Position numbers and translations under genes: made by a program
Source of the DNA: Candidatus Omnitrophota bacterium
GTDB lineage: Bacteria > Omnitrophota > Omnitrophia > Omnitrophales > Aquincolibacteriaceae
Direction: 5' to 3'
DNA length: 64,000 nt
Assembly: GCA_016930235.1 (NCBI GenBank)
Contig: JAFGHI010000030.1
Location: 43,834-107,833 of the forward strand
The notes under the pieces: generated by a model
The model's database searches: none
Told to the model about the DNA's origin: nothing
Seen by the model: only the letters and a program-made list of their open reading frames with translations
In this document: one piece after another, positions 5,953 to 56,100 of the stretch
Layout of the letters: each line of letters starts with the position of its first letter
How positions within the stretch are numbered: the first letter of the stretch is position 1

Positions 5953-6834
5953 ATGAAGATATCGGAATGTTATCAAACGGCGAAGCCGGCGATTTCATTT
6001 GAGTTATTTCCGCCCAAAACGGAGGAAGGGGAGAAAAAACTCTATGAAACCGTCGCTCAGCTGAAGACCTTAGATCCTGCTTTTGTGTCCGTGACTTACG
6101 GTGCTATGGGAACGACGCGCGTCAATACGCTCAGGATCGTTTCCGCCATCAAGAATAAAATCGGACTCGAAACGGCGGCCCACTTGACCTGTGTCGGCCA
6201 CAGTCAGGACGAGATCGAAAAAATATTAGAGGAGCTCAAAGAAAATCATATCGAAAATATCATGGCCTTACGGGGTGATCCTCCCGAAGGTGAAAAGGAA
6301 TACAAGAGCGTTCAAAACGGTTTTCGTTACGCTTCCGAACTTGTCCGTTTTATCCGCCGGCATCCTGTGTACGGAAAGGTTTTCTCACTCGCTGTAGCAG
6401 GTTATCCGGAAGGTCATTTGGAATGCCGTGACAAAAAAAAGGATCTAGAGCATTTAAAAAAGAAAGTGGATGAGGGCGCGGATGTTATCATCACACAACT
6501 TTTTTTCCAAAACCGGGATTATTTTGATTTTGTTGAGCGCTCACGGAGCGTGGGCATTCACATTCCGATTGTGCCGGGGATTATGCCCGTGACTCACGGT
6601 CCGCAAATTGAAAAATTTGCGTCCATGTGCGGGTCTGCGATTCCTGCTGTCATGAAAGAAGCGATTCTCAAATTCGGAGAAGATCAAACAGCGATCGAAG
6701 CCTTTGGCATTGATTACGCGACCCGGCAATGCGAGGAATTATTAAATCACCAAGTCCCCGGACTTCATTTTTATACCCTCAATAAATCGTGGTCGACTCA
6801 AAAGATCACACGCAACCTGGGTTTGGGACGCTAG
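5953..6834 (+). CDS. metF: 5,10-methylenetetrahydrofolate reductase
   Basis: FELFPPKT...VSVTYGAMGTTR is typical of MetF, and the gene is divergent from metH. Confidence 0.9.
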   Translation: MKISECYQTAKPAISFELFPPKTEEGEKKLYETVAQLKTLDPAFVSVTYGAMGTTRVNTLRIVSAIKNKIGLETAAHLTCVGHSQDEIEKILEELKENHIENIMALRGDPPEGEKEYKSVQNGFRYASELVRFIRRHPVYGKVFSLAVAGYPEGHLECRDKKKDLEHLKKKVDEGADVIITQLFFQNRDYFDFVERSRSVGIHIPIVPGIMPVTHGPQIEKFASMCGSAIPAVMKEAILKFGEDQTAIEAFGIDYATRQCEELLNHQVPGLHFYTLNKSWSTQKITRNLGLGR

Positions 6835-6840
6835 GACTTT

Positions 6841-7302
6841 CTACTTCTTTCCCGATAGGGCTTCAGTCACTTCCACTTGGTGATAGGATTCTTCGATGGC
6901 TTTGCGGATCGCTGTCGGAACGCAGAGGACGGTATCGATTTGGGTGACTTTTGCGAGTTGTTTGATTTCTTCTTCCGGCCAAAGGTGAATCGGATTTCCA
7001 ATACCAAGGGTGAGCTTATCGCGATAAAGTTCAATCGGAAGGATATTATATTTTTGAGCCACACTTTTAGGAATAAGGGCAACCGCCTTAGGATTAATGC
7101 GCGTACGGCTTAAATCCACAAACCGCATGACATATTGTTCTGCAAGTGCTTTGTAGAGAAGATGTTCGTGAACCAGACCTTTACGGATTAGGATCTCACC
7201 GATTAATTCCTTTGTGCGCTCCTGCTCCTCAAGGGCGTCCTTTAATTGATCCCAAGTTAGGAGTTTCTTTTGGATGAGAATTTCACCGATTCGCCATGAC
7301 AT
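6841..7302 (-). CDS. Standalone MshEN / GspE-N-terminal domain protein, a putative c-di-GMP receptor
   Basis: It carries two tandem 24-residue MshEN motifs, RIGEILIQKKLLTWDQLKDALEEQ and LIGEILIRKGLVHEHLLYKALAEQ. The rest of the protein resembles the T2SE N-terminal domain. It has no ATPase domain. Confidence 0.7.
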   Translation of the reverse strand: MSWRIGEILIQKKLLTWDQLKDALEEQERTKELIGEILIRKGLVHEHLLYKALAEQYVMRFVDLSRTRINPKAVALIPKSVAQKYNILPIELYRDKLTLGIGNPIHLWPEEEIKQLAKVTQIDTVLCVPTAIRKAIEESYHQVEVTEALSGKK

Positions 7303-7391
7303 AATGTTAGTAACCTATTTTGCTTGCTGATTTTACGTGGGATATTCATTTTTGGCAAGCTTCTTCATCCGGAGAGGTTCTCTGCCTTTGA

Positions 7392-7467: not shown

Positions 7468-8895
7468 ATGAAACATAAAGAATGTGCCTACGGCGGGCGG
7501 TTTCTGCCTATGGAGTCTATTGAGACCCTCAGAAAAGAGTTCAAAGAAGGCCGCCAAGTCAAAATTGCGGGGCGTTTGATGTCCCGGCGGATCATGGGAA
7601 AAAGTACTTTTTCGGACTTAAAGGATCAGAATGGCCGTATTCAAATCTACGCCAAGAAAGATGTGCTCGGGGAAGAACTCTATCATGTCTTCACCTCTTT
7701 GAATATCGGGGATATCCTGGGCATTGAGGGAATTTTGTTCACTTCCAAAACAGGTGAACCTACGGTGCGCATTGAAAATTTCAAGGTCCTCTCGACGATT
7801 GTCCGGACTTTACCTGAAAAATGGCACGGCCTGAAGGATATTGAGACACGCTACCGTCACCGGTATGTTGATTTGATTGTCAATGATGATGTCCGCAAGA
7901 TTTTCAAAAAACGCAGTGATATCATCCGGGGGATACGCCAATTTTTAGACGACCGCGGATTTATGGAAGTGGAAACTCCCATGATGCAGCCGATTCCAGG
8001 CGGCGCTCGAGCAAAACCCTTCGTGACGCATCATAACGCACTTCATACCGATTTATATCTGCGAGTCGCTCCAGAACTTTATCTCAAAAGGCTCTTAGTC
8101 GGCGGGTTTGAGAAAGTCTATGAAATTAACCGGAACTTTCGCAATGAAGGGGTCTCCGTGCGCCATAATCCGGAATTTACGATGCTGGAAGTTTATCAGG
8201 CTTATGCGGATTACACGGACATGATGGAAATCACCGAAGAACTGATTTCCGGTTTGGTCAAGGAATGCTACGGCAAAGAGGAAATTCCTTTCGGTGACAA
8301 GACCCTTAACTTTAAGCGGCCGTGGAAGAGGATCTCTTTCTATGATGCGATTCAAGAAAAAACGGGTATTGATTTCCGCAAGATAAAGATTCGTGAAGGG
8401 GCCAAGAAATTAAAGATCGAAAGGTTGAGCGAGCTCAATGAAATGGAAGAGGTCGACATCTTAAATGAAATCTTTGATGAGGTGCTCCAAGACGAATTGT
8501 GGCATCCGACCTTTGTGATTGATTATCCGACGGTGATGACGCCTTTGGCCAAGGCCAAAGAAGAGGACCCCGATCTTGTTTACCGATTTGAGCTTTTCAT
8601 TGCCAAGATGGAGTTAGCGAATGCCTTTTCGGAACTTAATGACCCGATGATCCAAAGGGAACGTTTGACGGTTCAAAAAGAGATGATCGGAGAACACAAG
8701 GTGATTGATGAGGACTTCCTTATGGCTCTTGAATATGGGATGCCTTCAGCGGGTGGTTTGGGGATCGGAATTGACCGCTTGGTGATGCTGTTGACAAATC
8801 AGCATTCGATCCGGGAAGTGATTTTATTTCCGCAGCTGAAACCGGAAAAACCGGTCGCTGATTTGGACGGTGATGATGACGAAGGAAAAAAATAA
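7468..8895 (+). CDS. lysS: Lysyl-tRNA synthetase, class II
   Basis: It has an OB anticodon-binding domain (GRLMSRRIMGKSTFSDLKDQNGRIQIY) and class II motifs. The N-terminal extension is short. Confidence 0.9.
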   Translation: MKHKECAYGGRFLPMESIETLRKEFKEGRQVKIAGRLMSRRIMGKSTFSDLKDQNGRIQIYAKKDVLGEELYHVFTSLNIGDILGIEGILFTSKTGEPTVRIENFKVLSTIVRTLPEKWHGLKDIETRYRHRYVDLIVNDDVRKIFKKRSDIIRGIRQFLDDRGFMEVETPMMQPIPGGARAKPFVTHHNALHTDLYLRVAPELYLKRLLVGGFEKVYEINRNFRNEGVSVRHNPEFTMLEVYQAYADYTDMMEITEELISGLVKECYGKEEIPFGDKTLNFKRPWKRISFYDAIQEKTGIDFRKIKIREGAKKLKIERLSELNEMEEVDILNEIFDEVLQDELWHPTFVIDYPTVMTPLAKAKEEDPDLVYRFELFIAKMELANAFSELNDPMIQRERLTVQKEMIGEHKVIDEDFLMALEYGMPSAGGLGIGIDRLVMLLTNQHSIREVILFPQLKPEKPVADLDGDDDEGKK

Positions 8896-10952: not shown

Positions 10953-11891
10953 ATGGGTTTTAAAAAAATATTAAAAGAGGAGAGATCCATGGCGCTTCAA
11001 GTTTATTTGAATGGGAAATGGGTGGCAAAAGAGGAAGCAAAAATATCAGTCTTTGATCATGGGCTTCTTTACGGAGACGGGGTTTTTGAAGGCATACGGT
11101 CTTATCAGGGGTTGGTTTTTAGATTGCAGGAGCATCTTGACCGGTTATGGGAGTCTGCACATACGTTGATGCTCAAAATTCCCATGAGCAAGCGTGAGAT
11201 GGAAAAGGCCATTGTGGAAACCTTGCGCATCAATAAACTTCTTGATGCCTATATTCGTGTTGTGATTACACGGGGTGTCGGGGATCTCGGACTGGACCCT
11301 GACAAGTGTAAGCAACCCACGATTTTTATTATTACGGATAAGATTGTGCTTTATCCGAAGTCTTTTTACCAGAAAGGGCTTGAGATTATTACCGTGCCAA
11401 CAGTGCGGAATTTGCCGGAAGCGGTTAATCCGTCGATTAAGAGCCTAAATTACCTTAATAATATTCTGGCGAAGATCGAAGCGAAGAATTCAGGCTGTGC
11501 GGAAGCCTTGATGCTGAACCACCAGGGATATGTGGCGGAATGTACGGGAGACAATGTTTTTATGGTGAAAGCCCCCAAGTCTTCGAAGGGGATGAGTCAA
11601 GTCGTGACGCCGCCTGTTTATTTAGGGGCCCTCAAAGGGATTACACGCCAAGCGATCATGGATTTAGCGGAGGCCAGGAAATATGAGGTTACGGAAACGA
11701 TTATGACGCGGCATGATCTTTTTAATGCCGATGAGGTTTTTCTGACGGGAACGGCGGCTGAAATTATCCCTGTTGTGAAAATTGACGGGCGTGTGATCGG
11801 GACGGGAAAACCGGGAAAAGTGACCGAAGCGCTTTTACGCGATTTCCATCGTTTAACGCGAACGGACGGAGTCCGGTATAAAATCGGATAA
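10953..11891 (+). CDS. ilvE: Branched-chain amino acid aminotransferase (class IV PLP fold)
   Basis: VYLNGKWV...KISVFDHGLLYGDGVFEGIRSY is typical of class IV BCAT. The true start may be the internal MALQ at ~10989. Confidence 0.7.
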   Translation: MGFKKILKEERSMALQVYLNGKWVAKEEAKISVFDHGLLYGDGVFEGIRSYQGLVFRLQEHLDRLWESAHTLMLKIPMSKREMEKAIVETLRINKLLDAYIRVVITRGVGDLGLDPDKCKQPTIFIITDKIVLYPKSFYQKGLEIITVPTVRNLPEAVNPSIKSLNYLNNILAKIEAKNSGCAEALMLNHQGYVAECTGDNVFMVKAPKSSKGMSQVVTPPVYLGALKGITRQAIMDLAEARKYEVTETIMTRHDLFNADEVFLTGTAAEIIPVVKIDGRVIGTGKPGKVTEALLRDFHRLTRTDGVRYKIG

Positions 11892-11921
11892 CTATTTTTT
11901 GTTTGAAGGAGTCCAAAGAGA

Positions 11922-12440
11922 ATGGTTTGTAATCTTTGCGGGACAAAAGAAGCGACGATCCATTTGACGGAAATCATCAACAATCAAATGATCGAGATCC
12001 ATATTTGTGAAGAGTGCGCAAATGAAAAAGGCACGGATTTTAAGACTCATTTTAGTTTCGGCGATCTTTTAGGGGGAATACCGGAATCCGGAAAGTCGCC
12101 AAAAACCGGCGAGAAGAAACTACCCAACCGGTGCCCTTCCTGCGGCTTGACTTATGAACAGTTCGGGAAAACGGGACGTTTAGGGTGCGGTGCCTGCTAT
12201 GACAGCTTTGCGCGTTTGTTGATCCCTTTGATTAAACGGATTCAGCGCTCGATTCGTCATGTGGGCAAAAAACCCGGTAAGGTCCTGAGCGAGCAAAAAA
12301 GTCCGCAAACTCTCAAAGATTTACAGGAGCGTTTAAGGAAATGCATTCAAGGTGAGGAATTTGAAGAGGCGGCAAGGTTGAGGGATGTGATTCGGCAAGT
12401 GGAAGAGAAACAGAAGAAACCTAAAAGGGGTAAAGAATGA
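11922..12440 (+). CDS. mcsA: Protein-arginine kinase activator McsA (four CxxC zinc fingers plus a UVR motif)
   Basis: It has four CxxC pairs, CNLCG, CEEC, CPSCG and CGAC. A C-terminal UVR motif (EEFEEAARLRDVIRQ) is present. It sits immediately upstream of mcsB and clpC. Confidence 0.75.
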   Translation: MVCNLCGTKEATIHLTEIINNQMIEIHICEECANEKGTDFKTHFSFGDLLGGIPESGKSPKTGEKKLPNRCPSCGLTYEQFGKTGRLGCGACYDSFARLLIPLIKRIQRSIRHVGKKPGKVLSEQKSPQTLKDLQERLRKCIQGEEFEEAARLRDVIRQVEEKQKKPKRGKE

Positions 12441-13501
12441 ATCCGCTGGATGCATTGGTCGAACAACCGGTCGAATGGCTGCGTGTCAGCGGGCCCGAGA
12501 GTGATATTGTCGTCAGTTCCCGTTTGCGGCTGGCCCGGAATCTTTTTGGGGTCCCTTTTTTGCAAAAGCTGGAGAATGAGCAAAAAGTCGAGGTTATTGA
12601 AACCGTCGAAAAGGCCATCCGAAGAAGCCCCCGGATGAAAGATGCACACTATCTTAAACGCGCGCAGTTAAGTGAGTTGGATCTGCAGTTCCTTCTTGAA
12701 CGGCATTTAATCAGCCGGGAACATGTCGAGGAGAAGGGAGAAAAGGCCGTTGCGATTACCTCCAACGAAGTGGTAAGCCTGATGGTGCTTGAAGAGGATC
12801 ATCTGAGACTCCAGGCTTTTCAGGCGGGGTTTAGTCTTATGGATACATGGAGGATTATCAATCAAATCGATGATGATCTGGAAAAAAATTTAAATTATTC
12901 CTTTAGTGCTTCACTGGGTTATTTGACGGCATGTCCGACCAATGTCGGGACGGGATTAAGAGCTTCTTGCATGTTGCATTTACCGGGCCTTGTTTTAACG
13001 AAACAAGTTCACAAGGTCCTTCAAGCGTTAGCTAAATTGAATTTAACAGCGCGCGGTTTATACGGTGAAGGAACTCAAGCCACGGGGAATTTTTTTCAAT
13101 TTTCGAATCAAACAACGCTGGGACAAAACGAGGATGAAATTATTGATAATCTCGCTGCGGTCATCCGGCAGGTCATTGAACATGAAAAGGAAGCACGGCG
13201 TTACTTGGTTGAAAAAAAGAGAGTGAAATTTCAGGATCAAGTCTGGCGTGCTCTGGGAACTTTGAGGTCAGCCCATGTCATTTCATCCACGGAGGCGACA
13301 CAGTTGCTTTCGTTGGTGCAATTGGGCCTCCAATTAGAGATTTTGAAAGGGGCCCTGACGAAACAGGAGTTAAATCTTTTGTTTCTCCTGATTCAGCCTG
13401 CTCATTTGCAGAAATTATCCCGCAAGGCCTTGAGTGCGCCGGAACGGGACATCCGAAGGGCAGAGCTGATTCGTCAGAAATTCCAGAAAATCTCACTTTA
13501 G
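12437..13501 (+). CDS. mcsB: Protein arginine kinase McsB (ATP:guanido phosphotransferase)
   Basis: It carries the CPTNVGTGLRAS phosphagen-kinase active-site motif. It overlaps the mcsA stop by 4 bp. Confidence 0.85.
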   Translation: MNPLDALVEQPVEWLRVSGPESDIVVSSRLRLARNLFGVPFLQKLENEQKVEVIETVEKAIRRSPRMKDAHYLKRAQLSELDLQFLLERHLISREHVEEKGEKAVAITSNEVVSLMVLEEDHLRLQAFQAGFSLMDTWRIINQIDDDLEKNLNYSFSASLGYLTACPTNVGTGLRASCMLHLPGLVLTKQVHKVLQALAKLNLTARGLYGEGTQATGNFFQFSNQTTLGQNEDEIIDNLAAVIRQVIEHEKEARRYLVEKKRVKFQDQVWRALGTLRSAHVISSTEATQLLSLVQLGLQLEILKGALTKQELNLLFLLIQPAHLQKLSRKALSAPERDIRRAELIRQKFQKISL

Positions 13502-13575
13502 TCGATGCATTAAATGATTTGTCAATAGTGTCATCATCAATAGGTCAAGAATAGGCCATAGGAGCCTTTGGGAGG

Positions 13576-16035
13576 TTGAGAATGTTCGATCGTTTTACGG
13601 AAAGAGCAAGGAAAGTCATCATTTTAGCGAAGGAAGAAGCAAAACGGTTTAATCACGATTATATCGGGACTGAACACATCTTGCTGGGATTGATCAAGGA
13701 AGGGGAAAGTGTTGCTGCGGCGGTTTTGCAGAATCTTGGGTTGTCCCTTGATACGATTCGATTGGAAGTCGAAAAACTGGTCCAGTTTGGACCCAGTACC
13801 ATCGTTTCCGGAGATATTCCGTTTACTCCGAAAGCCAAGAAAGTGATTGAACTGGCAATGGATGAGGCGAGACGGCTGGGGCATAACTATATCGGGACAG
13901 AACATCTTTTGCTGGGCTTGATCAAGGAAGGCGAAGGCGTAGCGAGTCATGTTTTAATGAATGTCGGCCTTGATTTAAACAAGGTTCGTGCAGAAGTCAT
14001 TAAGCTTCTGGGTTCGTCAACTCCCAGCGGGTCGGGGGGCGGACCCGGCGGGGGAGGCGGGGTTGGAACGGCGCGCGGCAAGACAAAAACTCCGGCATTG
14101 GATTCCTTCGGTCGTGATTTGTCCACTTTGGCACGGGACGGCAAGCTGGATCCGGTTGTCGGACGTTCGGATGAAATCGAGCGTGTGATTCAAATCCTTG
14201 CGCGCCGTACGAAGAACAATCCGGTCCTTTTAGGCGAGGCAGGTGTGGGAAAGACGGCCATTGTGGAAGGTCTTGCTCAAAAAATTATCGCGGGGGATGT
14301 TCCCGAAATCTTAGCGGACAAGAGGATTGTTGTTTTGGATCTCGCGCTGATGGTTGCCGGAACAAAATACCGTGGTCAATTTGAAGAACGTATTAAAGCC
14401 GTGATGGATGAAATCCGTCGTACAGAGAATGTGATGATTTTTGTCGATGAGATCCATACCTTGGTAGGAGCAGGGGGAGCGGAAGGCGCAATCGATGCTT
14501 CGAATATCCTGAAGCCGGCCCTCGCACGCGGTGAAATACAATGCATTGGTGCAACGACGTTGGATGAATACCGCAAATATATTGAAAAAGATGCGGCGTT
14601 GGCCCGGAGATTTCAAACAATCATGGTGGATCCGCCTTCGGTGGATGAGTCCGTGCAGATTTTGAAGGGTTTGCGGGACCGATACGAAGCGCATCATCGA
14701 GTCAAGATAACCGATGAGGCCATTGAGGCTTCGGTGAAACTTTCGGATCGCTATATTTCGGGGCGTTTTCTGCCGGATAAAGCGATTGATATCATCGATG
14801 AAGCAGCCTCTCGTGCGAGGTTATCCGTAACGACGCTTCCTAAAGATCTCAAAAAGATTGAAACGGAGATCGAGGCCTTCAAAAGAGAAAAAGAAGCTGC
14901 CATTAAAGCACAGGATTTTGAGAAGGCGGCCAAGCTTCGTGATCAAGAGCGTCAGGCCAAAGAAGAATTGACGCGCGTCAAAAAGAATTGGAAAGAATCG
15001 AAATCGGAAGTTGAAGTCCAAGTCACCGAAGAAGACATTTCGCATATCGTATCGAAATGGACAGGGGTTCCTCTGGCCCGGCTGGAAGAAAAGGAAACGG
15101 CGCGGCTCCTCAGGATGGAAGATGAACTCCATCGCCGGATTATCGGCCAGGATGAAGCGATCCGGGTCATTTCCCATGCGGTTCGCCGCTCACGTTCGGG
15201 TTTGAGAAATCCGAGGCGTCCGATCGGTGCGTTTATTTTCCTGGGGCCGACCGGCGTTGGCAAAACGCTTCTCGCACGGGGGCTTGCGGAATTTATGTTT
15301 GGTGACGAGGATGCCATGGTGGCTATTGATTGTTCAGAATATGGAGAGAAGTTTAATGTTTCGCGTTTAGTGGGTGCCCCTCCCGGGTATGTGGGGTATG
15401 AAGAGGGAGGACAATTGACTGAAAAGGTACGTCGGCGGCCTTATTCTGTGGTGTTGTTTGATGAGATTGAGAAAGCCCATCCCGATGTTTTTAACATCAT
15501 GCTTCAAGTGATGGAGGAAGGGCGTCTCACCGATTCTTACGGTCGGAAAGTTGATTTTAGAAATACCATTTTGATCATGACTTCGAACGTAGGGGCGTCT
15601 CTTATCAAACGCGACGGTGATTTAGGGTTCAAACCTCAGATGGAAGATATTAATTATGAATCATTAAAGCGAAAGCTGCTTGATGAGACAAAAAAGGTCT
15701 TCCGTCCTGAATTTTTGAACCGTGTGGATGATACGATCGTTTTTCATCCGCTCACTCGCCAGGATCTCGAGCAGATTATCATGATCGAATTGCGGGAAGT
15801 GACTGACCGGTTGAAAGATAAGAAACTGGACTTGGATCTCTCTCCCGAGGTCATGAAATTCTTGATCGACAAAGGCTATGACCCTATCTTCGGTGCACGA
15901 CCGCTTAGACGTACCATTCAACGGTATATCGAAAATATTTTGGCTGAGGAGATCCTTTCCGGGAAGTTCAAGGAAGGGGATAAAATTCAGGCGGTTTTGC
16001 GGGGAGAGCAGATTCAATTTGAGAAAACATCTTAA
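13576..16035 (+). CDS. clpC: ATP-dependent Clp protease ATP-binding subunit ClpC
   Basis: It has doubled Clp_N repeats, two AAA+ modules ([16 protein letters not shown]) and a UVR linker ([10 protein letters not shown]). Confidence 0.9.
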
Positions 16036-16051
16036 TTCCGAAGAGGGGTTT

Positions 16052-17965
16052 ATGCGGTTTGGTTTTTGGCGTGTCTTCATAGGAAGTTTTTTGCTTCTTT
16101 CATGCCTTGCGGGGATTCCCTACCTTTGGGTGACTTCGGAAGTTCAAAAAGACGAGTTTAAGGCGCTTGCTGAAAAAAAAGCAAGCGAATTTCTAAGCGC
16201 CCATGTCGAGATCGATCGCATTCGTGTCGGGATGATCAACCGTGTGGCCTTGAGCGGGCTTAGGATCCGGTCGCAAGCGAAGGACGATGACGCTTACCGG
16301 ATTCATGTTGATCAAATTGTTTTTCGGTATCATCCCCTTGCGTTTTTAAGCCGCAAGCTGTCGGTTCCCTCGGGGATCATTTTGCAGGCCCCGAAACTGC
16401 TGGTCAAACAGACGGAGTTCTCCTATGACCTGCTTAAGGATTTTAAATTCGGTACGGGTGCGGAAAGTGTCTCGTCGCTTGAGTTTAAAGGGGGCGAGAT
16501 ATTTATCTCGGTTCCGGGATTCCGATCCAATATTCATGTGCAGAATATCAATGGGGTGTTAAGACCGCAAATGAATGGCGAAATTCGTGTGAATTTAAAA
16601 GGCCATTTAAAGGGTTTGCTTAACGGTGAAGCGAAATTGCGCGGGATTGTCGCGCCCTTTGAGAGGCGTCATGATTTGGATCTTGAATTGGATTCAGTCA
16701 GTTTAAATGATGAACTTTCGATCCCGCTCAAGGATATGAAGGGCAAGATTCGATGGGTGAATCAGGAGTTTTATTTTGATGGTGTCCAGGCATCCGTTTA
16801 TGGGTGGGATACCTTGATTAAAGGAGAGCTCAAAAATCTTCGAACGGCACCCGTTCTTGCTTTCAGTTGGTCAGCGGGCAAGAAATATCCGGCTTTGATG
16901 CTGACCTTCTTGGCGGATTTTTCAAATGAATATGTTGAAGGCAGCTTGCAGTGGTTGAAAGAAGACAAGCATGTTTTTCGAGGGAATATCAAGCGAGAAA
17001 AATGGAATTTTATATTTAACGATGTTTTGGTAGATGACCAATATTCAGGTAGCGGCCATCTGGATGTGGAATCCGGATACTCCCGTTTTCAATTTCAAAG
17101 AGGGGCGCAGCGTTTCGCCGCGCAGACAAATTTGCGTGATTTGAACTTCCATCTTGCTTTTAATCTGGAGCACGCCAAAATTTACGGACTCGATTTTGTT
17201 ACCTCAGCCGAGATTGAACTCAAGCCGACGAGATCTTGGGAAGAGGGAAGGCTATGGAGTTTCGACGGTCTTTTCCGAACGGATTATTTTGTCCTGGAGT
17301 ATGCGCCATTTTCGGATCTCCAAGGCCGTTTTCAAATTAACTCGTTTGGGGTTCATGATATTTTTTGTTCTTGGGGGCACGCTTTTGAAATGAACGGTGA
17401 TATTTCATTTACATCAAAACGTCCCGAGGGAAAATTCGTGCTTCAGGTTAATGGGTTTGATTTAGCGGGCGTCAAGAATTTTGCTTCAAAACCTTTACCG
17501 AAAACGTTGGGAGGGTATTTGGAGGGTAAGTTGAAGATGGAAGGTGTTTTATCAAAACCGGAGATCTCCGGTTCTTTCAGTGTCAAAGACGGCGTTCTAG
17601 GAAAACTGGAATACGACCGCGGGATGATTCATTTTCATGGTTTTGCGCCTTATCTGCCGTTAGAAGATTCGCGAATTTTAAGGGGCAGAACCGAGCTTTA
17701 CTTAAGGGGGGCCTTGGATCTTTCGCTTGCCAATATGTTTCACGGCATTAGGATTGAAACGGCCGACCATTTTGTTTTGTGGAAAGGTTGGGAATTTACG
17801 ACCAGTGATACAGAAGGGGATCTTGAAATCGATCATATCATTTCGAGACTTCCCAAGATTGCTGTCAAGGCTGGCCTGACGACCGGAGGGGCTACTTTAG
17901 GCGATACGGATAATATGCAGCAGGATGAGGGGTATGTTGCCATTGGACCGAAGGTCCGGTTCTAA
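16052..17965 (+). CDS. Membrane-anchored periplasmic protein, AsmA/TamB-like (putative)
   Basis: It has a single N-terminal TM segment followed by a long beta-rich region. The C-terminal G-x-L-x-G periodic repeats (GGYLEGKLKMEGVLSKPEISGSFSVKDGVLGKL) are reminiscent of the AsmA_2/DUF490 domain. It sits directly upstream of mlaEFD. Confidence 0.4.
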   Translation: MRFGFWRVFIGSFLLLSCLAGIPYLWVTSEVQKDEFKALAEKKASEFLSAHVEIDRIRVGMINRVALSGLRIRSQAKDDDAYRIHVDQIVFRYHPLAFLSRKLSVPSGIILQAPKLLVKQTEFSYDLLKDFKFGTGAESVSSLEFKGGEIFISVPGFRSNIHVQNINGVLRPQMNGEIRVNLKGHLKGLLNGEAKLRGIVAPFERRHDLDLELDSVSLNDELSIPLKDMKGKIRWVNQEFYFDGVQASVYGWDTLIKGELKNLRTAPVLAFSWSAGKKYPALMLTFLADFSNEYVEGSLQWLKEDKHVFRGNIKREKWNFIFNDVLVDDQYSGSGHLDVESGYSRFQFQRGAQRFAAQTNLRDLNFHLAFNLEHAKIYGLDFVTSAEIELKPTRSWEEGRLWSFDGLFRTDYFVLEYAPFSDLQGRFQINSFGVHDIFCSWGHAFEMNGDISFTSKRPEGKFVLQVNGFDLAGVKNFASKPLPKTLGGYLEGKLKMEGVLSKPEISGSFSVKDGVLGKLEYDRGMIHFHGFAPYLPLEDSRILRGRTELYLRGALDLSLANMFHGIRIETADHFVLWKGWEFTTSDTEGDLEIDHIISRLPKIAVKAGLTTGGATLGDTDNMQQDEGYVAIGPKVRF

Positions 17966-33664: not shown

Positions 33665-35221
33665 ATGGCTGAACCCAGGGATCCGAATCAGGCACAGAGG
33701 GATATGATGGAAAACATGAGGAGGATGATGAGCCAATTTGGCACACGTCCGGATCCTCAGGCTGAACGGGTCAGGGAACAAGAGGAAGAGAAACAGAGGC
33801 AGAAACGCAAAGAAGTCCTTTCCTTTGATCTCAAACCCAAAGATGTCAAAAAGTATTTGGATCGGTACGTCATCAAGCAAGAAGATGCCAAACGGGTTTT
33901 GGCCACGGCGGTTTGTGACCATTACAACCATGTCAAACGCCAGCGGGAGAAAGGCAAAAGCCGGCACTATGTCAAACAAAACGTTTTGATGCTGGGTAAG
34001 ACGGGGGTTGGGAAGACTTTCCTTATTCGGAGTTTATCCGAACTTATCGGTGTCCCTTTTATAAAAGCGGATGCGACGAAATTCAGCGAAACGGGTTATG
34101 TCGGAGGTGACGTTGATGATCTTGTGCGGGACCTAGTTCACAAGGCCGATGGGGATATGGAGCTTGCCGAATGCGGTATGATCTATATCGACGAAATCGA
34201 TAAGATTGCAGCTCCCTCGAATGTTCAGGGGCGTGATGTCAGCGGGAGCGGTGTTCAAAGGGGACTTTTGAAAATTATGGAGGAAACCGAAGTGCCGCTT
34301 CGTAATCCCCAGGACATTCAATCTCAGATTCAATCGCTTGTTGAGTTCCAACAAAAAGGCAAAACGACACGCCCGATGATTAATACGCGGAATATCCTTT
34401 TCATTGTCAGCGGTGCCTTTGAGGGGCTTGCGGCCATTACGGAGAAAAGAGTCAAATCTTTAGAGATCGGTTTTTCGTCATCGGCCCCGAAACATATCCC
34501 CAAAGAGGACCTTTTCAGGGCATCGAAAACGGAAGATTTTATACAGTTTGGGTTTGAACCGGAATTTATCGGCCGCCTTCCTGTCCGTGTGATCTGTGAT
34601 CCATTGAGTGCACAGGACCTTTATACTATTTTGACCGTCTCGGAAGGCTCCATTTTGAGGCAATACGAGGAATCTTTCCGCGCGTACGGCATTGAAATCC
34701 AGTTCAATGATGATGCCTTATGGGAAATCGCCAAAAGGGCCTCAAATGAAGGAACGGGTGCACGGGGTTTGGTCACGATCTGCGAAAAGATCTTCCGGGA
34801 CTTGAAATATGAGCTTCCTTCCAGCAGGCTGAAGTCGTTCCGGCTCACCCGCGAGATGGTGGCTTCGCCGAAGAAAGGAATGGAGGAATTGCTCCAGGAG
34901 GAAAGGGAGGAAAAGATTCGAGAAATAGAGCTTGAGATTACCGAATTCGAAAAGATTTTTTCCGACAAAAATGGCATTGCTATTGAGTTCGATCCAAAAG
35001 GGCGTCGAGCCATTCAAGAACACGTGTTAGAAGAGAGTGTTCAAGTGAAACCTTTCTTAGAAAATCTGCTTTCAAATTATCCCCATGGTTTAGAGCTAAT
35101 TCGCAAAAAGGAGCCGCGTCATAAGTATGTGTTAAATCAGGACGTGGTTAAGGACCCCAACCATTTTCTGGAAGAGTGGATTAAGAATACTTATGAAACC
35201 GGGCCTATAAAGCAGCGGTAG
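33665..35221 (+). CDS. ClpX-like AAA+ ATPase lacking the N-terminal zinc-binding domain, with a ~140-aa C-terminal extension
   Basis: It has a Walker A (LGKTGVGKTF), a Walker B (MIYIDEIDKIA), a VQRGLLKIMEET box, an IGF-like loop (SLEIGFSS) and a sensor-2 (GARGL). The first 70 aa contain no Cys. Confidence 0.7.
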   Translation: MAEPRDPNQAQRDMMENMRRMMSQFGTRPDPQAERVREQEEEKQRQKRKEVLSFDLKPKDVKKYLDRYVIKQEDAKRVLATAVCDHYNHVKRQREKGKSRHYVKQNVLMLGKTGVGKTFLIRSLSELIGVPFIKADATKFSETGYVGGDVDDLVRDLVHKADGDMELAECGMIYIDEIDKIAAPSNVQGRDVSGSGVQRGLLKIMEETEVPLRNPQDIQSQIQSLVEFQQKGKTTRPMINTRNILFIVSGAFEGLAAITEKRVKSLEIGFSSSAPKHIPKEDLFRASKTEDFIQFGFEPEFIGRLPVRVICDPLSAQDLYTILTVSEGSILRQYEESFRAYGIEIQFNDDALWEIAKRASNEGTGARGLVTICEKIFRDLKYELPSSRLKSFRLTREMVASPKKGMEELLQEEREEKIREIELEITEFEKIFSDKNGIAIEFDPKGRRAIQEHVLEESVQVKPFLENLLSNYPHGLELIRKKEPRHKYVLNQDVVKDPNHFLEEWIKNTYETGPIKQR

Positions 35222-35249: not shown

Positions 35250-36371
35250 ATGAAAACGGGTATTGCGCATTTGCCGCTCCACGGCGGAAAAGCACCGCGC
35301 TGGCTTTTTGACAGAATGACAAAATTGGCCCGTGGAATGGTCATGGTCATTATCGAAGAATATGGCCCTGAAGAGATGCTCAAACGGTTATCGGACCCTT
35401 ATTGGTTTCAGGCGTTCGGGTGTGTGCTGGGTTTCGACTGGCATTCAAGCGGTTTGACGACGACCGTCGGAGGTGCTTTGAAGGAGGGCCTCCGTGATGT
35501 CGAGCTTGAGATTGGCTTCTTTGTGGCGGGCGGAAAAGGGGGAACGTCGAGAAAGACACCTCAGGAAATCGAAACGGTGTCAGAAAGAACAGGGATCGAT
35601 GCGAAACCTTTGGTCTATGCAAGCCGGATGGCGGCTAAAGTCGATTCCGCGGCTTTACAGGATGGTTTCGAGTTGTACCACCATAATTTCTTTCACACAT
35701 CGAGCGGCCGGTGGTGTGTTGTTCAGCAGGGAATGAATAAAGAAAACCGTTATGCGAGGCGATATCATTGGCTCGGGGATAAGGTTTCTGATTTCGTTTG
35801 TGAACCTCACGCAGCGGTTTGTTGTGATTTCCAGACCGCGGTCTTGAATATGGTTCACCGCGAGAGTGAAAAAGCCAGACAGAGGTCGGTTGTGATTTCA
35901 AGACATGATCCCGACAGAACATTCCATGAGCTTGAGGCCATAGTTCGTTTGGATATGCCCAGACGCCATGGGATTCGGGAGGAATTCGATATCGACCCTA
36001 AACGATTTCATAAGGTCTTGCTCAAAACCTATGAATATCAGCCGAATGGTTTTGAGACATTATTAAGTATGCAGGGGATAGGACCGAAAACAATACGGGC
36101 GCTGACCTTGATGAGCGAACTTATTTACGGGGAACGGCCGAGTTATCAAGATCCGGTCCGCTATAGTTATGCCCATGGGGGAAAAGACGGGTTTCCCTAT
36201 CCCGTTGATCGTAAAACTTATGATCAATCGATTGATTGTCTTCGATTGGCCCTTGATCGGTCAAAAATCGACCGATCCGAACGCATTCATGCTCTTAAAC
36301 GTTTAGTCGCATTTTATGACAGCAGATCACCCCAACGAAATCAGAATAGGGTGACGGGAGGATTGCCATGA
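35250..36371 (+). CDS. Conserved hypothetical protein (possibly the DUF763 family)
   Basis: It has a conserved-looking N-terminus (LPLHGGKAPRWL...DWHSSGLTT). No catalytic motif was recognised. Confidence 0.4.
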   Translation: MKTGIAHLPLHGGKAPRWLFDRMTKLARGMVMVIIEEYGPEEMLKRLSDPYWFQAFGCVLGFDWHSSGLTTTVGGALKEGLRDVELEIGFFVAGGKGGTSRKTPQEIETVSERTGIDAKPLVYASRMAAKVDSAALQDGFELYHHNFFHTSSGRWCVVQQGMNKENRYARRYHWLGDKVSDFVCEPHAAVCCDFQTAVLNMVHRESEKARQRSVVISRHDPDRTFHELEAIVRLDMPRRHGIREEFDIDPKRFHKVLLKTYEYQPNGFETLLSMQGIGPKTIRALTLMSELIYGERPSYQDPVRYSYAHGGKDGFPYPVDRKTYDQSIDCLRLALDRSKIDRSERIHALKRLVAFYDSRSPQRNQNRVTGGLP

Positions 36372-36760
36372 AAAAAGAAGGTCCTTTTTCGTTTCTTGAA
36401 TGGTTTAAATCATTTCGTTATGCAGCGGTCGGGATGTGGGATATGTTGCGGACTGAACATAACGCATGGGTGCATGCCATTGTGACCGTGTTTGTCTTGG
36501 GCTTTTCAGTGTGGTTGCGGATTAGCGGTTTGGAATTTAGCATGATCGTCATGGCGGTTGTCGGGGTATGGGCCGCTGAAGCTTTCAACACGGTTCTGGA
36601 AATTGTGATGAATATGATCTCACCGGAGTATTCGCGGGCGGCGCAGAGAGCAAAAGATATTGCTGCTGGCGGAGTTTTGATCGCATCGATCGGTTCTGCT
36701 ATTATTGGGCTCTTTATTTTGGGACCTCCGCTTTGGGCGAAATTGCAAATATTATTCTAA
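36368..36760 (+). CDS. dgkA: Diacylglycerol kinase / undecaprenol kinase (DgkA family)
   Basis: It is 130 aa with 3 TM segments, and has NTVLE and AKDIAAGGVL motifs. Confidence 0.8.
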   Translation: MKKEGPFSFLEWFKSFRYAAVGMWDMLRTEHNAWVHAIVTVFVLGFSVWLRISGLEFSMIVMAVVGVWAAEAFNTVLEIVMNMISPEYSRAAQRAKDIAAGGVLIASIGSAIIGLFILGPPLWAKLQILF

Positions 36761-36784
36761 GTCAAACAGGAAAACTAAAGGGTC

Positions 36785-38533
36785 ATGAATCCTGAAGAAT
36801 TTGAATCCCTCAGCTCTGAAGAGCAAATTAAAATTTTTCATAAGAGCTCGTTTAAAGAAAAAGGAGAGCTTATCCTGCATTCCCATCATCCGGAGGCTTT
36901 GACTCATTCCCTGTCTCAGGAAGAACTTTATCTGACGACTCGCGAAATGGATATTGAGGAAAGAAGCGAGATCATCCGTTTTGCTTCAAGACCTCAACTG
37001 TATTTTGTTACGGATGTTGATTGCTGGGAAAAAGACAGGATTAGTACGAGCGGATTTACCACATGGATGGAGATTCTCCTGAAATCCGGGGATCATCAGC
37101 TCTTGGCATGGCTGACAGGGATGGATTACGAGACGATCGTTGCGGGTTTGAAACGGATGATTCGGGTTGAGAAACCCGAGCGCGAATATGCGATGGATGA
37201 TGTTTTGGGGGATGTGCCCTATTTTACAATCGATAACTATTATTTTATTTTTGTGAAAGAGGAACAGCTTGAAACCATGCGGAGGACCTTTGAGATTTTG
37301 TTCGAAAATTACCGGGGGCGGTATGTGGCGCTTTTAGAAGGCGTTCTTAGCGAGATTGAGGATGACCTGGAGGAAGAGGCGTATCAGAAACGTGAGCAGC
37401 GTTTAGCCGAGAGGGGATTCCCGGAACCTGAAATTGCTCACCGGATTTACCGGCCGATGACACCCGAGGAATTTCGTGAGTCTCCGCTTAAATCAAAGGA
37501 AGGCGATAAAGCCGAAGGGGCTATCGTCTCGGAAGTTTCATTGCCTCCCAATTATCTGCGCATGTGGTCGGAGAACAGGCTCTTTCTGGATGATGTTTTG
37601 TTGTCTCTCAGAGGCGAGGAGATAGAAATTCAGGAGGGTATTCAGGAAGAATTGGCCTGGCTGTCCAATAAAACCATTGCTTGCGAGGGGTTGGTCTTTT
37701 CTTCAGAAGAAAATGTGAAGCGGGGAGTTGAAAGGGCGCGGAATTTTGTGAATTTGGGGCTTGAGATAGTAAGCGGGAAGGATCTTGAGGTTGCCAAAAA
37801 AATTGTGAAAACAAGGTGGCTTGAAAACATCTTCCGTGTAGGGGCCGGGGCCCTTATCCCATTACGCGAAAAGAGCATGAAATTAGTCCGCATACTATGG
37901 AAAGGTGACCAGGAGGGTTTTCTGAGATTTCTTGACTCTCCGTATGGATCGATTTTGAAGGGATTGCTTTTGCGTGTTCCCGATCATTACGATGATCAAG
38001 AAAAAAACAACCTGGATCATTTGCGTGATTTTCGGACGGCTGAAGATATTCAAAAGGATGAGCATAGTCTTGAACAGATTCGGTTGGTTATGACGTTTTT
38101 ATCCAAGCGTTTTCCTGTGTTATGGAATGATGTTTTGAACGGGCGAGGTCCAGAATCCCTGTTTCAATTATTGGGAACACTTTATGCGCAGTTTGTGCTC
38201 TGGGGGCAAGTCAAGAATCATGTTCTAAGCTCTCAGGAAGTGATTCAATTTATCCGGTCAGCCTTTGACCCAGAAGGAGCTCGAAGAGTATTGAAGCATG
38301 AGATGAAAAAGAAATTCATGGATACCTTTTTTAATGAGGAGGATCAAAATTCCTTAAAGTCGTTTTGGGGGATCATTTTCAGTGAGATGGAAGATGAATT
38401 AGGCAGATTAAATATCGAGAAGGGTTTGCGGCCTGAATATATCGGGATTCTATCGGTGGCTTCGGGGACGAAACCGGCAACAAAAAAAATCGAAAAGAGA
38501 AAAAAGAAAAAACTCTCGGGGAGCACGAATTAG
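36785..38533 (+). CDS. Hypothetical 582-aa soluble protein with a Lys-rich C-terminal tail
   Basis: It is a long ORF with coding-like composition. No domain was recognised. Confidence 0.5.
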   Translation: MNPEEFESLSSEEQIKIFHKSSFKEKGELILHSHHPEALTHSLSQEELYLTTREMDIEERSEIIRFASRPQLYFVTDVDCWEKDRISTSGFTTWMEILLKSGDHQLLAWLTGMDYETIVAGLKRMIRVEKPEREYAMDDVLGDVPYFTIDNYYFIFVKEEQLETMRRTFEILFENYRGRYVALLEGVLSEIEDDLEEEAYQKREQRLAERGFPEPEIAHRIYRPMTPEEFRESPLKSKEGDKAEGAIVSEVSLPPNYLRMWSENRLFLDDVLLSLRGEEIEIQEGIQEELAWLSNKTIACEGLVFSSEENVKRGVERARNFVNLGLEIVSGKDLEVAKKIVKTRWLENIFRVGAGALIPLREKSMKLVRILWKGDQEGFLRFLDSPYGSILKGLLLRVPDHYDDQEKNNLDHLRDFRTAEDIQKDEHSLEQIRLVMTFLSKRFPVLWNDVLNGRGPESLFQLLGTLYAQFVLWGQVKNHVLSSQEVIQFIRSAFDPEGARRVLKHEMKKKFMDTFFNEEDQNSLKSFWGIIFSEMEDELGRLNIEKGLRPEYIGILSVASGTKPATKKIEKRKKKKLSGSTN

Positions 38534-43159: not shown

Positions 43160-43765
43160 ATGGATGAACCATCGGAGTTAAGACAAAAGACAATCGCAAT
43201 TGCCAAAAAACATAAGGCGTCCTGGATCGAGCTGGGGCAGTATCTTTATACCATCCATAAGGATAAGCACTATAAAAGTTGGGGCTATCTTAGTTTCCAA
43301 ACTTATTGCAAGAAGGAGCTCAGCATCAAAGAAACCACGGCGGCAAAACTTATGAAGTCCTATCATTTTTTGGAAAAGGAAGAACCCAGAATGGTTTCCC
43401 CGACTTTTCTGGAAAAGGAGGAATCGGCCAAGATCCCTGATTATGAAGCCGTGAACGTCCTAAGATTGGCTAAGCAGAATCAGAAAATTAACACGGGCGA
43501 TTTTTCGGATTTGCGGGAAGCCGTTTTAAACGCTGCCAAAGAACCCCAGGAGATTCGGGCCCAAATCAAACAGATTCTTGAGGATCGCGATGAGAGGGAA
43601 CCCGATGAGATTCAGAGGTCCAAAAGAAATGCTTCGATTAAACGTTTGGTGACGATGCTGTCCTCGATGAAAAAGCAGATGGAAAGCGAAAAACTTTTGC
43701 CCGCTTATTTGATTAAGCAGATGGCCGATTTGGCGGGGAAACTTGAAGATCAGCTGGAGGAATAA
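43160..43765 (+). CDS. Hypothetical 201-aa charged helical protein
   Basis: It is an ORF only, located upstream of the histidine kinase. Confidence 0.45.
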   Translation: MDEPSELRQKTIAIAKKHKASWIELGQYLYTIHKDKHYKSWGYLSFQTYCKKELSIKETTAAKLMKSYHFLEKEEPRMVSPTFLEKEESAKIPDYEAVNVLRLAKQNQKINTGDFSDLREAVLNAAKEPQEIRAQIKQILEDRDEREPDEIQRSKRNASIKRLVTMLSSMKKQMESEKLLPAYLIKQMADLAGKLEDQLEE

Positions 43766-50668: not shown

Positions 50669-50851
50669 ATGAGAAAAACTTTTTTGGGGCTCCTTTTCAT
50701 TGTCGCGCTGCACGCGGTTTACACGTTTCGCGCCTTTCCTGTCTTGGATTTGGCGTTTTCGACGCCCCTCCTGAGCATTGATTACGGAACTCATTATTTT
50801 CAAACTCGGCAAACCTTAGGATTCGAGAAGATACGAATTTATCTCTCATGA
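50669..50851 (+). pseudogene. Decayed N-terminal remnant (~50 aa) of a third paralog of the downstream membrane-protein genes
   Basis: FRAFPVLDLAFSTPLLSIDYGTHYFQTRQTL aligns to the N-termini of the two downstream proteins (VFPVYQLDPGTPILINDFSIHHYQTEQML and VFPVQKLDLQTPILTHDMAFHHYQTQQAL). It then diverges and stops. Its stop overlaps the next ATG (ATGA). Confidence 0.45.
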
Positions 50852-54616: not shown

Positions 54617-54713
54617 AATTAAGGTATCAGTTCAAAATCGCGACAATAAGTAACATTCCTATCATCGACACCTGAATCATCCAATGCCCAAAGAAAAAAC
54701 GAATGGACGATTA

Positions 54714-54742
54714 TTGACATTTCAAACATCGTATGGTATATT
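54714..54742 (+). promoter_or_regulatory. Near-consensus sigma70 promoter, TTGACA-N17-(TGg)TATATT
   Basis: TTGACA lies at 54714-54719 and TATATT at 54737-54742, with an extended -10 TG at 54734-54735. It sits in a 300-bp AT-rich gap. Confidence 0.5.
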
Positions 54743-54754
54743 TTAAGCATTATA

Positions 54755-54784
54755 AATGTATTATAAAGTAATTTATAATACATT
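54755..54784. promoter_or_regulatory. Perfect 13-bp inverted repeat AATGTATTATAAA-gtaa-TTTATAATACATT just downstream of the predicted TSS
   Basis: It is read directly from the sequence, at about +6 to +35 relative to the predicted TSS. Confidence 0.45.
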
Positions 54785-54910
54785 GTGTCGATCGTAAAGT
54801 TGAAAATTTAGAGTTTTCCTCCGCGGGTGAGGGAGTGCTGAAGACTAAAGATCATCTCTTTAGAGGAAGGCATTTCCTCTCCCCTTTTTAGAGTGTAGTC
54901 GGATCTTTGC

Positions 54911-55138
54911 ATGAAGGCCGACTGTTGCCGGTTGAAAAGAAGTGGAGAGGGAATTCAAAGAATGGGGTTAACGGCAATGTCACGAAATATCAGAAAAGTC
55001 ATCTCATTGATTTCGAATCTGTATCGATTGGAAAAGAAACTCACCGAGATAAAGTCCAAATGCGTCAATAAAAAAGAAGGCAAATGCACGATGGAATTTC
55101 TCGGCGATAACTATCCCGTCTTCGGTCATCTATCATAG
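54911..55138 (+). CDS. Putative small Cys-containing peptide of 75 aa, or 58 aa from the internal ATG at ~54962 which has a GGAGAGGG RBS
   Basis: The ORF is bracketed by the strong promoter and a strong terminator. A helical region is followed by ...SKCVNKKEGKCTMEF... The RBS for the first ATG is weak. Confidence 0.25.
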   Translation: MKADCCRLKRSGEGIQRMGLTAMSRNIRKVISLISNLYRLEKKLTEIKSKCVNKKEGKCTMEFLGDNYPVFGHLS

Positions 55139-55161
55139 TTTAAAATTGGGACGGCAATCCG

Positions 55162-55210
55162 GGGTTAGAAATCGATGGAGTATAGGCCTTGATTTCTAAC
55201 CCTTTTTCTT
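55162..55210 (+). terminator. Rho-independent terminator (12-bp stem GGGTTAGAAATC/GATTTCTAACCC followed by TTTTTCTTT)
   Basis: A perfect 12-bp inverted repeat is followed immediately by a T-tract. Confidence 0.6.
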
Positions 55211-55463
55211 TGCAGCCCCAAAAGTTATCCGAAGATATCATCCCGATAGGACCGAGGATGCTATGGCCGAGAGTGACGGCATCTATGGGTTCTATTCTGT
55301 AAACCCCTGAGAGAGTAAGGGATTGAGAAGAAAGTCTCGATGAGTCAATAAAATACTGAATAAGTCGATGATATAGAGGATAGATTCGAAGCATTGATGG
55401 GGAGGAAAAGAAGTTTAAACCGCAAGAGTATGAACAAAGTGTCCGGACGAAAGGGGGATCTCA

Positions 55464-55646
55464 TTGCTTGAATCGGTTACGGATTCCATAGGGCAAATAG
55501 TCAATCAGCTGACGGAAATATTCAGAAGTACCGTTAGTTACCTGGGATATAACTATGGGTTAACAGAGGGGCAAAGCAACGCTTTGATAATGGGAATCCT
55601 GGGGATTTTGATCTTTATCATTCTCAGGAGCTTTTGGGGGAAATAG
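55464..55646 (+). CDS. Putative small membrane peptide of 60 aa with a TTG start
   Basis: An RBS-like AAGGGGGA lies 5 nt upstream. The C-terminus is a hydrophobic helix. Confidence 0.25.
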   Translation: MLESVTDSIGQIVNQLTEIFRSTVSYLGYNYGLTEGQSNALIMGILGILIFIILRSFWGK

Positions 55647-55767
55647 CCTGCTATTTCCCTGGGGTGCGCCGCTCTTTCCCTAGATTCAGAAAATTCCTTC
55701 CGCAGTCGGGTTAAACTAGCCAATTCATTCCTAACATGTTACAATGCAATTCTTTAAGGAGGAAATT

Positions 55768-56049: not shown

Positions 56050-56100
56050 GGGATTCAATTTTCTCCATTTGAATCCAACGATGCTTATAAGGAAAACAAG

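Follow-up and report, generated by a model that had tools for sequence, protein, structure and literature searches.

What becomes of a second-messenger receptor domain that is encoded entirely on its own? Does it still bind its ligand, and if so, which partner would receive the signal? These questions are raised by a small minus-strand gene in a 64,000-nucleotide stretch of contig JAFGHI010000030.1 of a Candidatus Omnitrophota bacterium (GenBank assembly GCA_016930235.1), the whole of which we refer to as the window. The gene encodes an MshEN domain, one of only two or three broadly distributed receptor domains for cyclic diguanylate (c-di-GMP). To our knowledge, in the well-studied MshEN members the domain is joined to one that provides the output, for example an ATPase or a glycosyltransferase, and signalling by free-standing copies has been little explored. 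Omnitrophota are uncultured and ultra-small, and probably live as predators or depend on hosts; type IVa pili, giant GGDEF proteins and PilZ genes are prominent in the phylum. The explanation we favour is that the product is a cytoplasmic single-domain MshEN protein acting as a c-di-GMP receptor or adaptor, likely with a pilus or secretion-motor partner; taken as a whole, we hold this statement with slightly more confidence than doubt. We infer both of its parts, and we hold c-di-GMP binding, which is read from the conservation of the motifs, with more confidence than the pilus output.

The gene and its parts are listed below.

6841 to 7302, minus strand: MshEN gene, complete, 153 amino acids (aa), from the list of open reading frames (ORFs) and the sequence; MBN1688324.1, locus tag JW893_04425.
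7222 to 7293, minus strand: c-di-GMP-binding motif I, aa 4-27, RIGEILIQKKLLTWDQLKDALEEQ, from the translation; 9/11 strict positions.
7207 to 7221, minus strand: 5-residue linker ERTKE; the same spacing is found in MshE.
7135 to 7206, minus strand: c-di-GMP-binding motif II, aa 33-56, LIGEILIRKGLVHEHLLYKALAEQ, from the translation; 9/11 strict positions, 10/11 of the extended consensus.
6874 to 7128, minus strand: MshEN_C or T2SSE_N1-type alpha/beta subdomain (aa 59-143), the probable partner-binding surface, from PF05157 and the structure model.

The ORF begins with an ATG, its N-terminus reads MSWRIGEILIQKKLL, and the start methionine is common to the homologues. The translation is 100% identical to MBN1688324.1 (also P0001), annotated as 'hypothetical protein JW893_04425' in a Candidatus Omnitrophica/Omnitrophota metagenome-assembled genome. 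A first-pass annotation of this DNA had described a 153-aa stand-alone MshEN protein devoid of any GspE/PilB ATPase domain, and had taken the lack of a match to the T2SSE_N/MshEN hidden Markov models as grounds for giving this up. The ORF is real, and two models match it above their curated cutoffs: NCBIfam NF053729 ('cyclic di-GMP-binding domain, MshE-related'; 'c-di-GMP_motif') covers aa 4-56 (E 7.9e-17, 60.8 bits against a cutoff of 38) and Pfam PF05157 (MshEN) covers aa 59-143 (E 1.2e-12, 48 bits against a cutoff of 23.1). PF05157 is the only Pfam family matched by the 153-aa protein; a T2SSE ATPase (PF00437) was not found in it, and the gene ends 6 bp from the stop codon of the neighbouring metF, so the absence of an ATPase domain was borne out as well. 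The PilB model TIGR02538 aligns over its first 141 positions only and scores 59.9 bits against a cutoff of 675. The protein is therefore not a member of the PilB/GspE/MshE secretion ATPases, which carry T2SSE (PF00437) with its Walker motifs.

An AlphaFold2 (AF2) model built on 26 homologues reached a predicted local distance difference test score of 93.1 and a predicted template-modelling (TM) score of 0.81. It shows the two subdomains of the MshEN fold: an N-terminal four-helix bundle (helices 5-11, 17-30, 34-40 and 46-56) and a C-terminal alpha/beta unit of T2SSE_N1 type with strands at 87-93, 96-101 and 121-126. The top Foldseek matches of the model in the PDB are the c-di-GMP-bound structures of PilF GSPII-B (8pfa, 8pdk; E 7e-11, TM 0.72/0.78), and MshE with c-di-GMP (5htl) is matched with TM 0.75/0.81. 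By sequence, the best solved relatives are Thermus thermophilus PilF GSPII-B (56 bits), the N-termini of Myxococcus xanthus and Geobacter PilB, and Vibrio cholerae MshE. Because of the model matches, the missing ATPase and the structural likeness to c-di-GMP-bound MshEN domains, we conclude that the window protein is one complete MshEN domain and nothing besides.

Are the two motifs intact? The strict motif, RLGxx(L/V/I)(L/V/I)xxG(L/V/I)(L/V/I)xxxxLxxxLxxQ, has 11 defined positions. The first-pass annotation had reported two 24-residue copies of it, the second matching at every defined position. Both copies are present, joined by the 5-residue linker into the 24+5+24 arrangement of the 53-residue MshEN module, but the description of the motifs was inaccurate: each copy scores 9/11, and neither follows the strict consensus throughout. 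Both have Ile in place of the Leu of position 2. In addition, the Gly of position 10 is Lys in motif I, and the Arg of position 1 is Leu in motif II, the copy that had been called perfect. Against the relaxed motif of Wang et al. 2016 each copy scores 10/11, and in a shuffle control even a single 9/11 match occurred in just 1 of 20,000 shuffled proteins, so that chance does not account for the motifs.

Wang et al. 2016 describe how the ligand is recognised: backbone amides of the motif Gly and of the residue after it contact the guanines, two Leu triads stack against them, and two Gln keep them in place. Changes at those Gly, Leu and Gln residues (G11V, G40L, L54H, L58C and Q61V) cost XpsE its c-di-GMP binding (Wang et al. 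2016). In the window protein G6, G35, L20, L24, L49, L53, Q27 and Q56 are all kept, and inactivating substitutions of the XpsE type are absent. N103, in the C-subdomain, aligns with the guanine-contacting Asp of PilF and MshE and lies opposite 'SDPR' in PilF. Neissner et al. 2024 extended the consensus to (R/K/L)LG... and proposed that a hydrophobic residue at position 1 predicts very high affinity; PilF GSPII-B, with Lys and Leu at its two position-1 sites, has a dissociation constant (KD) of 6 nM (Neissner et al. 2024). L33, at motif II position 1, fits this extended consensus. M. xanthus PilB, reported to bind c-di-GMP, has Asn at motif I position 10 in our alignment, which is a precedent for a residue other than Gly there. 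Judged from sequence, the departures from the strict motif are conservative or have a precedent in proven binders. Since the ligand-contacting residues are also conserved, c-di-GMP binding is likely, above all for the subtype to which the window protein belongs (see below).

How might such a protein work? We envisage that one c-di-GMP would lie on the four-helix bundle, with its two guanines recognised through the backbone amides of G6/E7 and of G35/E36. Each guanine would be sandwiched between a Leu triad (L20, L24 and I34; I5, L49 and L53) and a position-1 residue (R4; L33), and the ribose-phosphate would be held in place by Q27 and Q56. High affinity like that of PilF GSPII-B, possibly nanomolar, is suggested by the hydrophobic residue L33. 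Once the ligand is bound, the T2SSE_N1-like C-terminal subdomain would change its orientation, as in PilF, and a partner protein would then be bound or released. The likeliest class of partner would be a motor of the type IVa pilus or of type II secretion-like systems (PilB, PilM or PilC), on which the protein would act in trans, doing as a separate molecule what the N-terminal sensor domain does within PilB-type ATPases. The adjacency to metF, to which we return below, hints at co-expression with, or an extra link to, methionine and one-carbon metabolism.

Is the window protein an isolated case? The stand-alone architecture described in the first-pass annotation is real, and it is kept in more than 100 single-domain homologues. 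A word-indexed search returned about 100 of them, 140-165 aa long and 45-69% identical, and those labelled with an organism belong to Omnitrophota. A scan of GTDB species genomes found 29 Omnitrophota loci with stand-alone genes; the hits outside the phylum with a callable ORF were all N-termini of proteins of 555-1066 aa, mostly containing a PilB/GspE-type ATPase domain. An exhaustive profile search gave 37,833 representatives of the MshEN superfamily at E <=1e-3, with multi-domain PilB-type proteins at the top of the scores and many single-domain representatives as well. The window protein has all the hallmarks of its family: the signature W[HR]IGEIL[IV]QK[KR]L, a length of 140-165 aa and metF next to it.

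Conservation was counted in an alignment of 101 family members. G6, L20 and L24 (Gly3, L17 and L21 of motif I), G35 and L53 (Gly3 and L21 of motif II), L38 and the 5-residue linker are present in 101/101; Q27 (Q24 of motif I) is found in 100/101 and L49 in 81/101. Motif II position 24 is Gln in 32/101 and Arg in 66/101. Position 103 is Asp in 60/101 and Asn in 35/101, hence one or the other in 95/101. Conservation is clearly higher in the N-terminal bundle than in the C-subdomain, which is full length across the family and has invariant Pro, Glu and Tyr positions. Five motif positions (1 and 10 of motif I; 1, 10 and 24 of motif II) divide the family into two subtypes, a majority H-K-F-Q-R and the window's R-K-[F/L]-G-Q. 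By its motif residues the latter, represented by R-K-L-G-Q in the window protein, is the more canonical of the two.

Could these small proteins simply be truncated remnants, or mis-called N-terminal fragments, of pilB or gspE? Several JGI records do label the family's ~150-aa members 'type IV pilus assembly protein PilB', a name that comes from the pipelines and that we regard as a misannotation. More than 100 clusters share the length of 140-165 aa together with a conserved start and stop; metF abuts the stop codon, so no ATPase remnant lies downstream; and the family loci hold no T2SSE-type ATPase match bar a partial one about 6 kb away, at locus L031. We therefore rejected this explanation, which is effectively refuted.

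The first-pass annotation had also placed the gene between metF and lysS, and this was verified for both flanks.

5953 to 6834, plus strand: metF, encoding methylenetetrahydrofolate reductase; TIGR00676, 347 bits against a cutoff of 293.7.
7468 to 8895, plus strand: lysS; NF001756, 640 bits.
7330 to 7358, minus strand: candidate sigma-70-like promoter, TTGCCA-17-TAAAAT, 28 bp upstream of the MshEN ATG; 10/12 in a consensus scan, a pattern match only.

In the window, metF and the MshEN gene converge, with 6 bp between their stop codons, and lysS is divergent from the MshEN gene. The 165-bp spacer that the latter two share contains one sigma-70-like match per gene in the consensus scan. The word 'orphan', under which the gene had been introduced, turned out to be misleading. 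metF is the immediate neighbour in 28/28 assessable GTDB species loci and in 42/43 assessable loci of an independent metagenome scan, across several orientations and contexts, which makes the gene not really an orphan; moreover, a paralogue is found in a type IVa pilus cluster. The near-invariant adjacency to metF is a new observation of this analysis. We found no paper describing this Omnitrophota MshEN family or any link between MshEN and metF. The sole assessable exception is locus L066 (1528-1953). There a downstream 238-aa ORF with a Cys-rich C-terminus stands in metF's place, and lysS is still upstream.

The commonest gene order, on one strand, is methyltransferase, PAS-histidine kinase, receiver, (amidotransferase), metF, mshEN, aspartate ammonia-lyase (aspA), rpsB and tsf; the gaps in its metF-mshEN-aspA portion measure 27-150 bp, or are replaced by an 11-bp overlap. 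A second arrangement is shared by the window and loci L004, L008 and L023: lolD, lolC and lysS point leftwards, mshEN rightwards, metF leftwards and metH rightwards. In L064 the order is metH, metF, mshEN, all in one direction, and further contexts of the pair are found in L002, L010, L016 and L031. In L002 the pair lies beside an ORF of 10,411 aa. This giant ORF (L002:1-7751, minus strand) is divergent from mshEN, and a second one, encoding a 4,047-aa WD40/FHA protein, lies near the pair in L004 (13894-16426, minus strand). Overall, the metF-mshEN pair is kept in at least five contexts, in both relative orientations and with both flanks rearranged, and no other neighbour is equally constant. 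That the pair survives rearrangement of its flanks and a change of orientation suggests selection on the pairing; inherited synteny within one phylum is the alternative.

Might metF then point to the function? The protein could partner MetF, or one-carbon and methionine metabolism, in a regulatory role: with c-di-GMP or a guanine-like molecule such as a pterin or folate as ligand, it would modulate methylenetetrahydrofolate reductase, or it could be co-regulated with metF, in either case without acting on pili. All of the support for this comes from the adjacency in the 28 species loci and 42 metagenome loci and from its persistence across contexts and orientations, unequalled by other neighbours. 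On the other side, all loci come from a single phylum, so the synteny may be inherited, and the adjacency is lost in L066. The window genes cannot be co-transcribed, since they converge; the literature search gave no precedent for an interaction between MshEN and MetF; and the twofold-symmetric site looks made for a symmetric dinucleotide. We consider such a role unlikely. Its most specific form, in which MshEN would be a small-molecule-sensing regulatory subunit of methylenetetrahydrofolate reductase or of the methionine/S-adenosylmethionine cycle and would either couple c-di-GMP to one-carbon flux or else sense a folate or pterin, is distinctly improbable. Folate or pterin sensing is conceivable because the 4-oxo/N5 edge of a pterin resembles the O6/N7 edge of guanine that the backbone amides of the motif read. 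Were it true, a MetF or one-carbon role would give the MshEN fold either a class of output or a ligand that is new to it.

Which evidence, then, connects a receptor of this kind to pili? Published work on Omnitrophota describes type IVa pilus clusters as near-universal and often adjoining unusual F-type ATPases; it also describes GGDEF domains inside giant proteins, with small PilZ genes downstream of them. One stand-alone MshEN paralogue, P0109 (JGI 3300071358), is 36% identical to the window protein and shares the family signature. Its cluster comprises, in order, a 6823-aa ORF, F-ATPase genes among which a receiver gene is inserted, the MshEN gene, and then pilB, pilC, pilins and pilMNO, and it matches the 'symbiotic' F-ATPase/type IVa pilus cluster published for Omnitrophota. 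A second paralogue, P0113, has a motif I of 10/11 and is encoded directly upstream of two pilB paralogues (together L061:7001-10936), and both PilB proteins of that locus have degenerate N-terminal motifs (6/11, with Gly3 replaced). The near-canonical motif I of P0113 beside PilB N-domains that have decayed suggests, at the level of sequence, that a small protein of its own can take over the sensing, with sensor and motor possibly split. The ancestry of the domain, the paralogues in pilus clusters and the prevalence of type IVa pili in the phylum are our reasons for favouring a pilus or secretion-motor partner.

Several observations weigh against a c-di-GMP receptor that acts on pili. At motif I position 10 the turn Gly is never found in the family, and Lys or Arg takes its place in 99/101. 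Two thirds of the members have His for Arg at motif I position 1 and Arg for Gln at motif II position 24, and on account of these two residues affinity could be low or absent in part of the family. The metF-linked family is not beside pilus genes; L031 alone has, about 6 kb off, a 354-aa ORF with a partial match to PilB-type ATPases. The proposed pilus output consequently rests on the paralogues and on domain ancestry. Two pilin genes do occur at one metF-linked locus, L006. The first-pass annotation had suggested looking for diguanylate cyclases and for type IV pilus or type II secretion system (T2SS) genes; within the 64-kb window, this yielded none. A Pfam search of 40 window ORFs without an orthologue-based name found no GGDEF, EAL, HD-GYP, PilZ, pilus or T2SS genes, and the GG[DE]EF signature is absent both from the window in six frames and from all ORFs that were called at those loci of the family that come from genomes. 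In relatives, a histidine kinase gene lies upstream; its product, to which a precomputed Pfam search assigns 'GGDEF', was considered as a local cyclase and rejected: its domain is degenerate, and GG[DE]EF is missing in 21/21 orthologues.

The same kinase may have another role. It is a PAS-HisKA-HATPase protein (L006:4440-5975, plus strand) with orthologues in about 20 Omnitrophota loci, and a single-domain receiver gene follows it. In all 18 distinct full-length orthologues aligned, its 'GGDEF' domain has an RR..D (RxxD-like) element near the I-site position. Encoded in an operon-like block with metF and mshEN, the kinase may thus be a c-di-GMP-sensing receptor itself. For signalling, the window has only a GAF histidine kinase gene and one for an OmpR-type regulator (43.8-45.9 kb). 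An Rfam scan of the 64-kb window gave no family at the gathering threshold, c-di-GMP riboswitches and tRNAs included.

Do the altered motif residues mean that the ligand is no longer bound? The protein could be a ligand-independent interaction module, having lost c-di-GMP binding as XpsE/GspE and the N-domain of Xanthomonas PilB have, and could serve as a scaffold or competitor for partners of secretion ATPases. Many MshEN domains become non-binders after few substitutions, and this family deviates at four motif positions (Lys or Arg at motif I position 10, His or Phe at position 1, Arg at motif II position 24 in 66/101). The AF2 model also matches the non-binding Xanthomonas citri PilB-N/PilZ complex (7lkm; TM ~0.7), and the lack of a nearby cyclase, as seen in the searches of the window and the family loci, would fit. 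However, the substitutions that inactivate XpsE are absent, the equivalent Gly, Leu and Gln residues being invariant or nearly so; conservation along the protein is highest in the ligand-binding bundle; and the window protein belongs to the more canonical subtype. We regard a complete loss of binding as rather improbable.

Alternatively, the protein could bind c-di-GMP without passing the signal on, as an abundant, high-affinity buffer or sink that sets the threshold of free c-di-GMP and has no specific partner. The absence of an output domain, the high affinity predicted from the hydrophobic position 1, and the presence of a small, single-copy, phylum-wide gene among housekeeping genes would suit this role. 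A pure sink would not need the C-subdomain, because MshEN_N alone binds the ligand according to published work, yet this subdomain is retained at full length with its invariant Pro, Glu and Tyr. We judge a mere buffer to be very unlikely, and hold to a receptor or adaptor with a partner.

Other parts of the window contain genes worth recording. Past lysS, lolC and lolD, at 10953-16035 (plus strand), orthology with L004 identifies an Aminotran_4 gene, a 172-aa ORF without a Pfam match, a gene for a McsB-type arginine kinase and a clpC-like gene; this synteny is common to the window's closest relatives. Five plus-strand ORFs, of 624, 653, 695, 363 and 201 aa (50848-54616, 15878-17965, 1291-2382 and 43160-43765), have no Pfam match at E <=1e-5, and those of 624 and 653 aa overlap by 68 bp. 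The stretch from 54617 to 56100 has no listed ORF of 120 aa or more. At 35250-38533 (plus strand), just after a ClpB-like AAA protein (33665-35221), a 130-aa ORF stands between two genes whose products strongly match DUF763 (455 bits) and DUF6178 (369 bits) over the full length, forming an uncharacterised gene trio.

What does this small protein add to a well-known domain family? Two features are noteworthy, the family-specific signature and the adjacency to metF. Being small, highly conserved and spread across the phylum, the family lends itself to study as a possible missing link through which c-di-GMP could act on attachment or predation. The recent proposal that hydrophobic residues at position 1 go with nanomolar affinity could be put to a natural test on its members, which have hydrophobic or aromatic residues there. 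The pairing with metF, if functional, would join second-messenger signalling to one-carbon metabolism.

How does the window protein compare with known systems? The best match, both by sequence (56 bits) and by structure (E 7e-11, 33-34% identity), is PilF GSPII-B of T. thermophilus (8pdk, 8pfa). The two share the two-subdomain fold, a Leu rather than Arg at motif II position 1, for which nanomolar affinity was measured in PilF, a similar 'QK' before motif I position 10 and a similar 'ALAEQ' ending of motif II. The window protein is free-standing, whereas GSPII-B belongs to a row of three domains attached to a type IV pilus ATPase; its motif I has Lys at position 1 and Gly at position 10, where the window protein has Arg and Lys, and the Arg268 salt-bridge partner of PilF is Ile in the window protein. 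V. cholerae MshE, the founding member (5htl), has the same 24+5+24 module and fold (TM 0.75/0.81, E 5.7e-12), but it forms part of the MSHA pilus ATPase, both of its motifs begin with Arg and keep the Gly of position 10, and its KD is ~0.5 µM. The C-terminal MshEN domain of E. coli NfrB binds c-di-GMP outside the pilus ATPases, and its model NF008411 matches aa 5-106 of the window protein (E 1e-15); unlike the latter, it is not free-standing but fused to the glycosyltransferase that it activates.

Forms of MshEN without an ATPase were listed by Wang et al. 2016, namely (MshEN_N)2 proteins and Pseudomonas aeruginosa PA3740, in which a c-di-GMP-binding motif was identified and which is associated with swarming. 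PA3740 (MshEN followed by a divergent T2SSE_N1, without ATPase) is the nearest characterised precedent for a stand-alone receptor, likened here by description only. It differs in its beta-/gammaproteobacterial lineage and in a C-subdomain described as highly divergent, and no metF linkage is reported for it. CdgR, also considered as the closest stand-alone receptor, was rejected, as it belongs to the ComFB family and not to MshEN. Closest in design are the stand-alone MshEN proteins of pilus operons, P0109 and P0113, which have the same size and single-domain architecture, are 34-36% identical to the window protein and are likewise uncharacterised. P0109 shares the RIG...KKKL / FLGEILIR signature. 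The genes for these two lie directly upstream of pilB, whereas those of the window's family lie beside metF.

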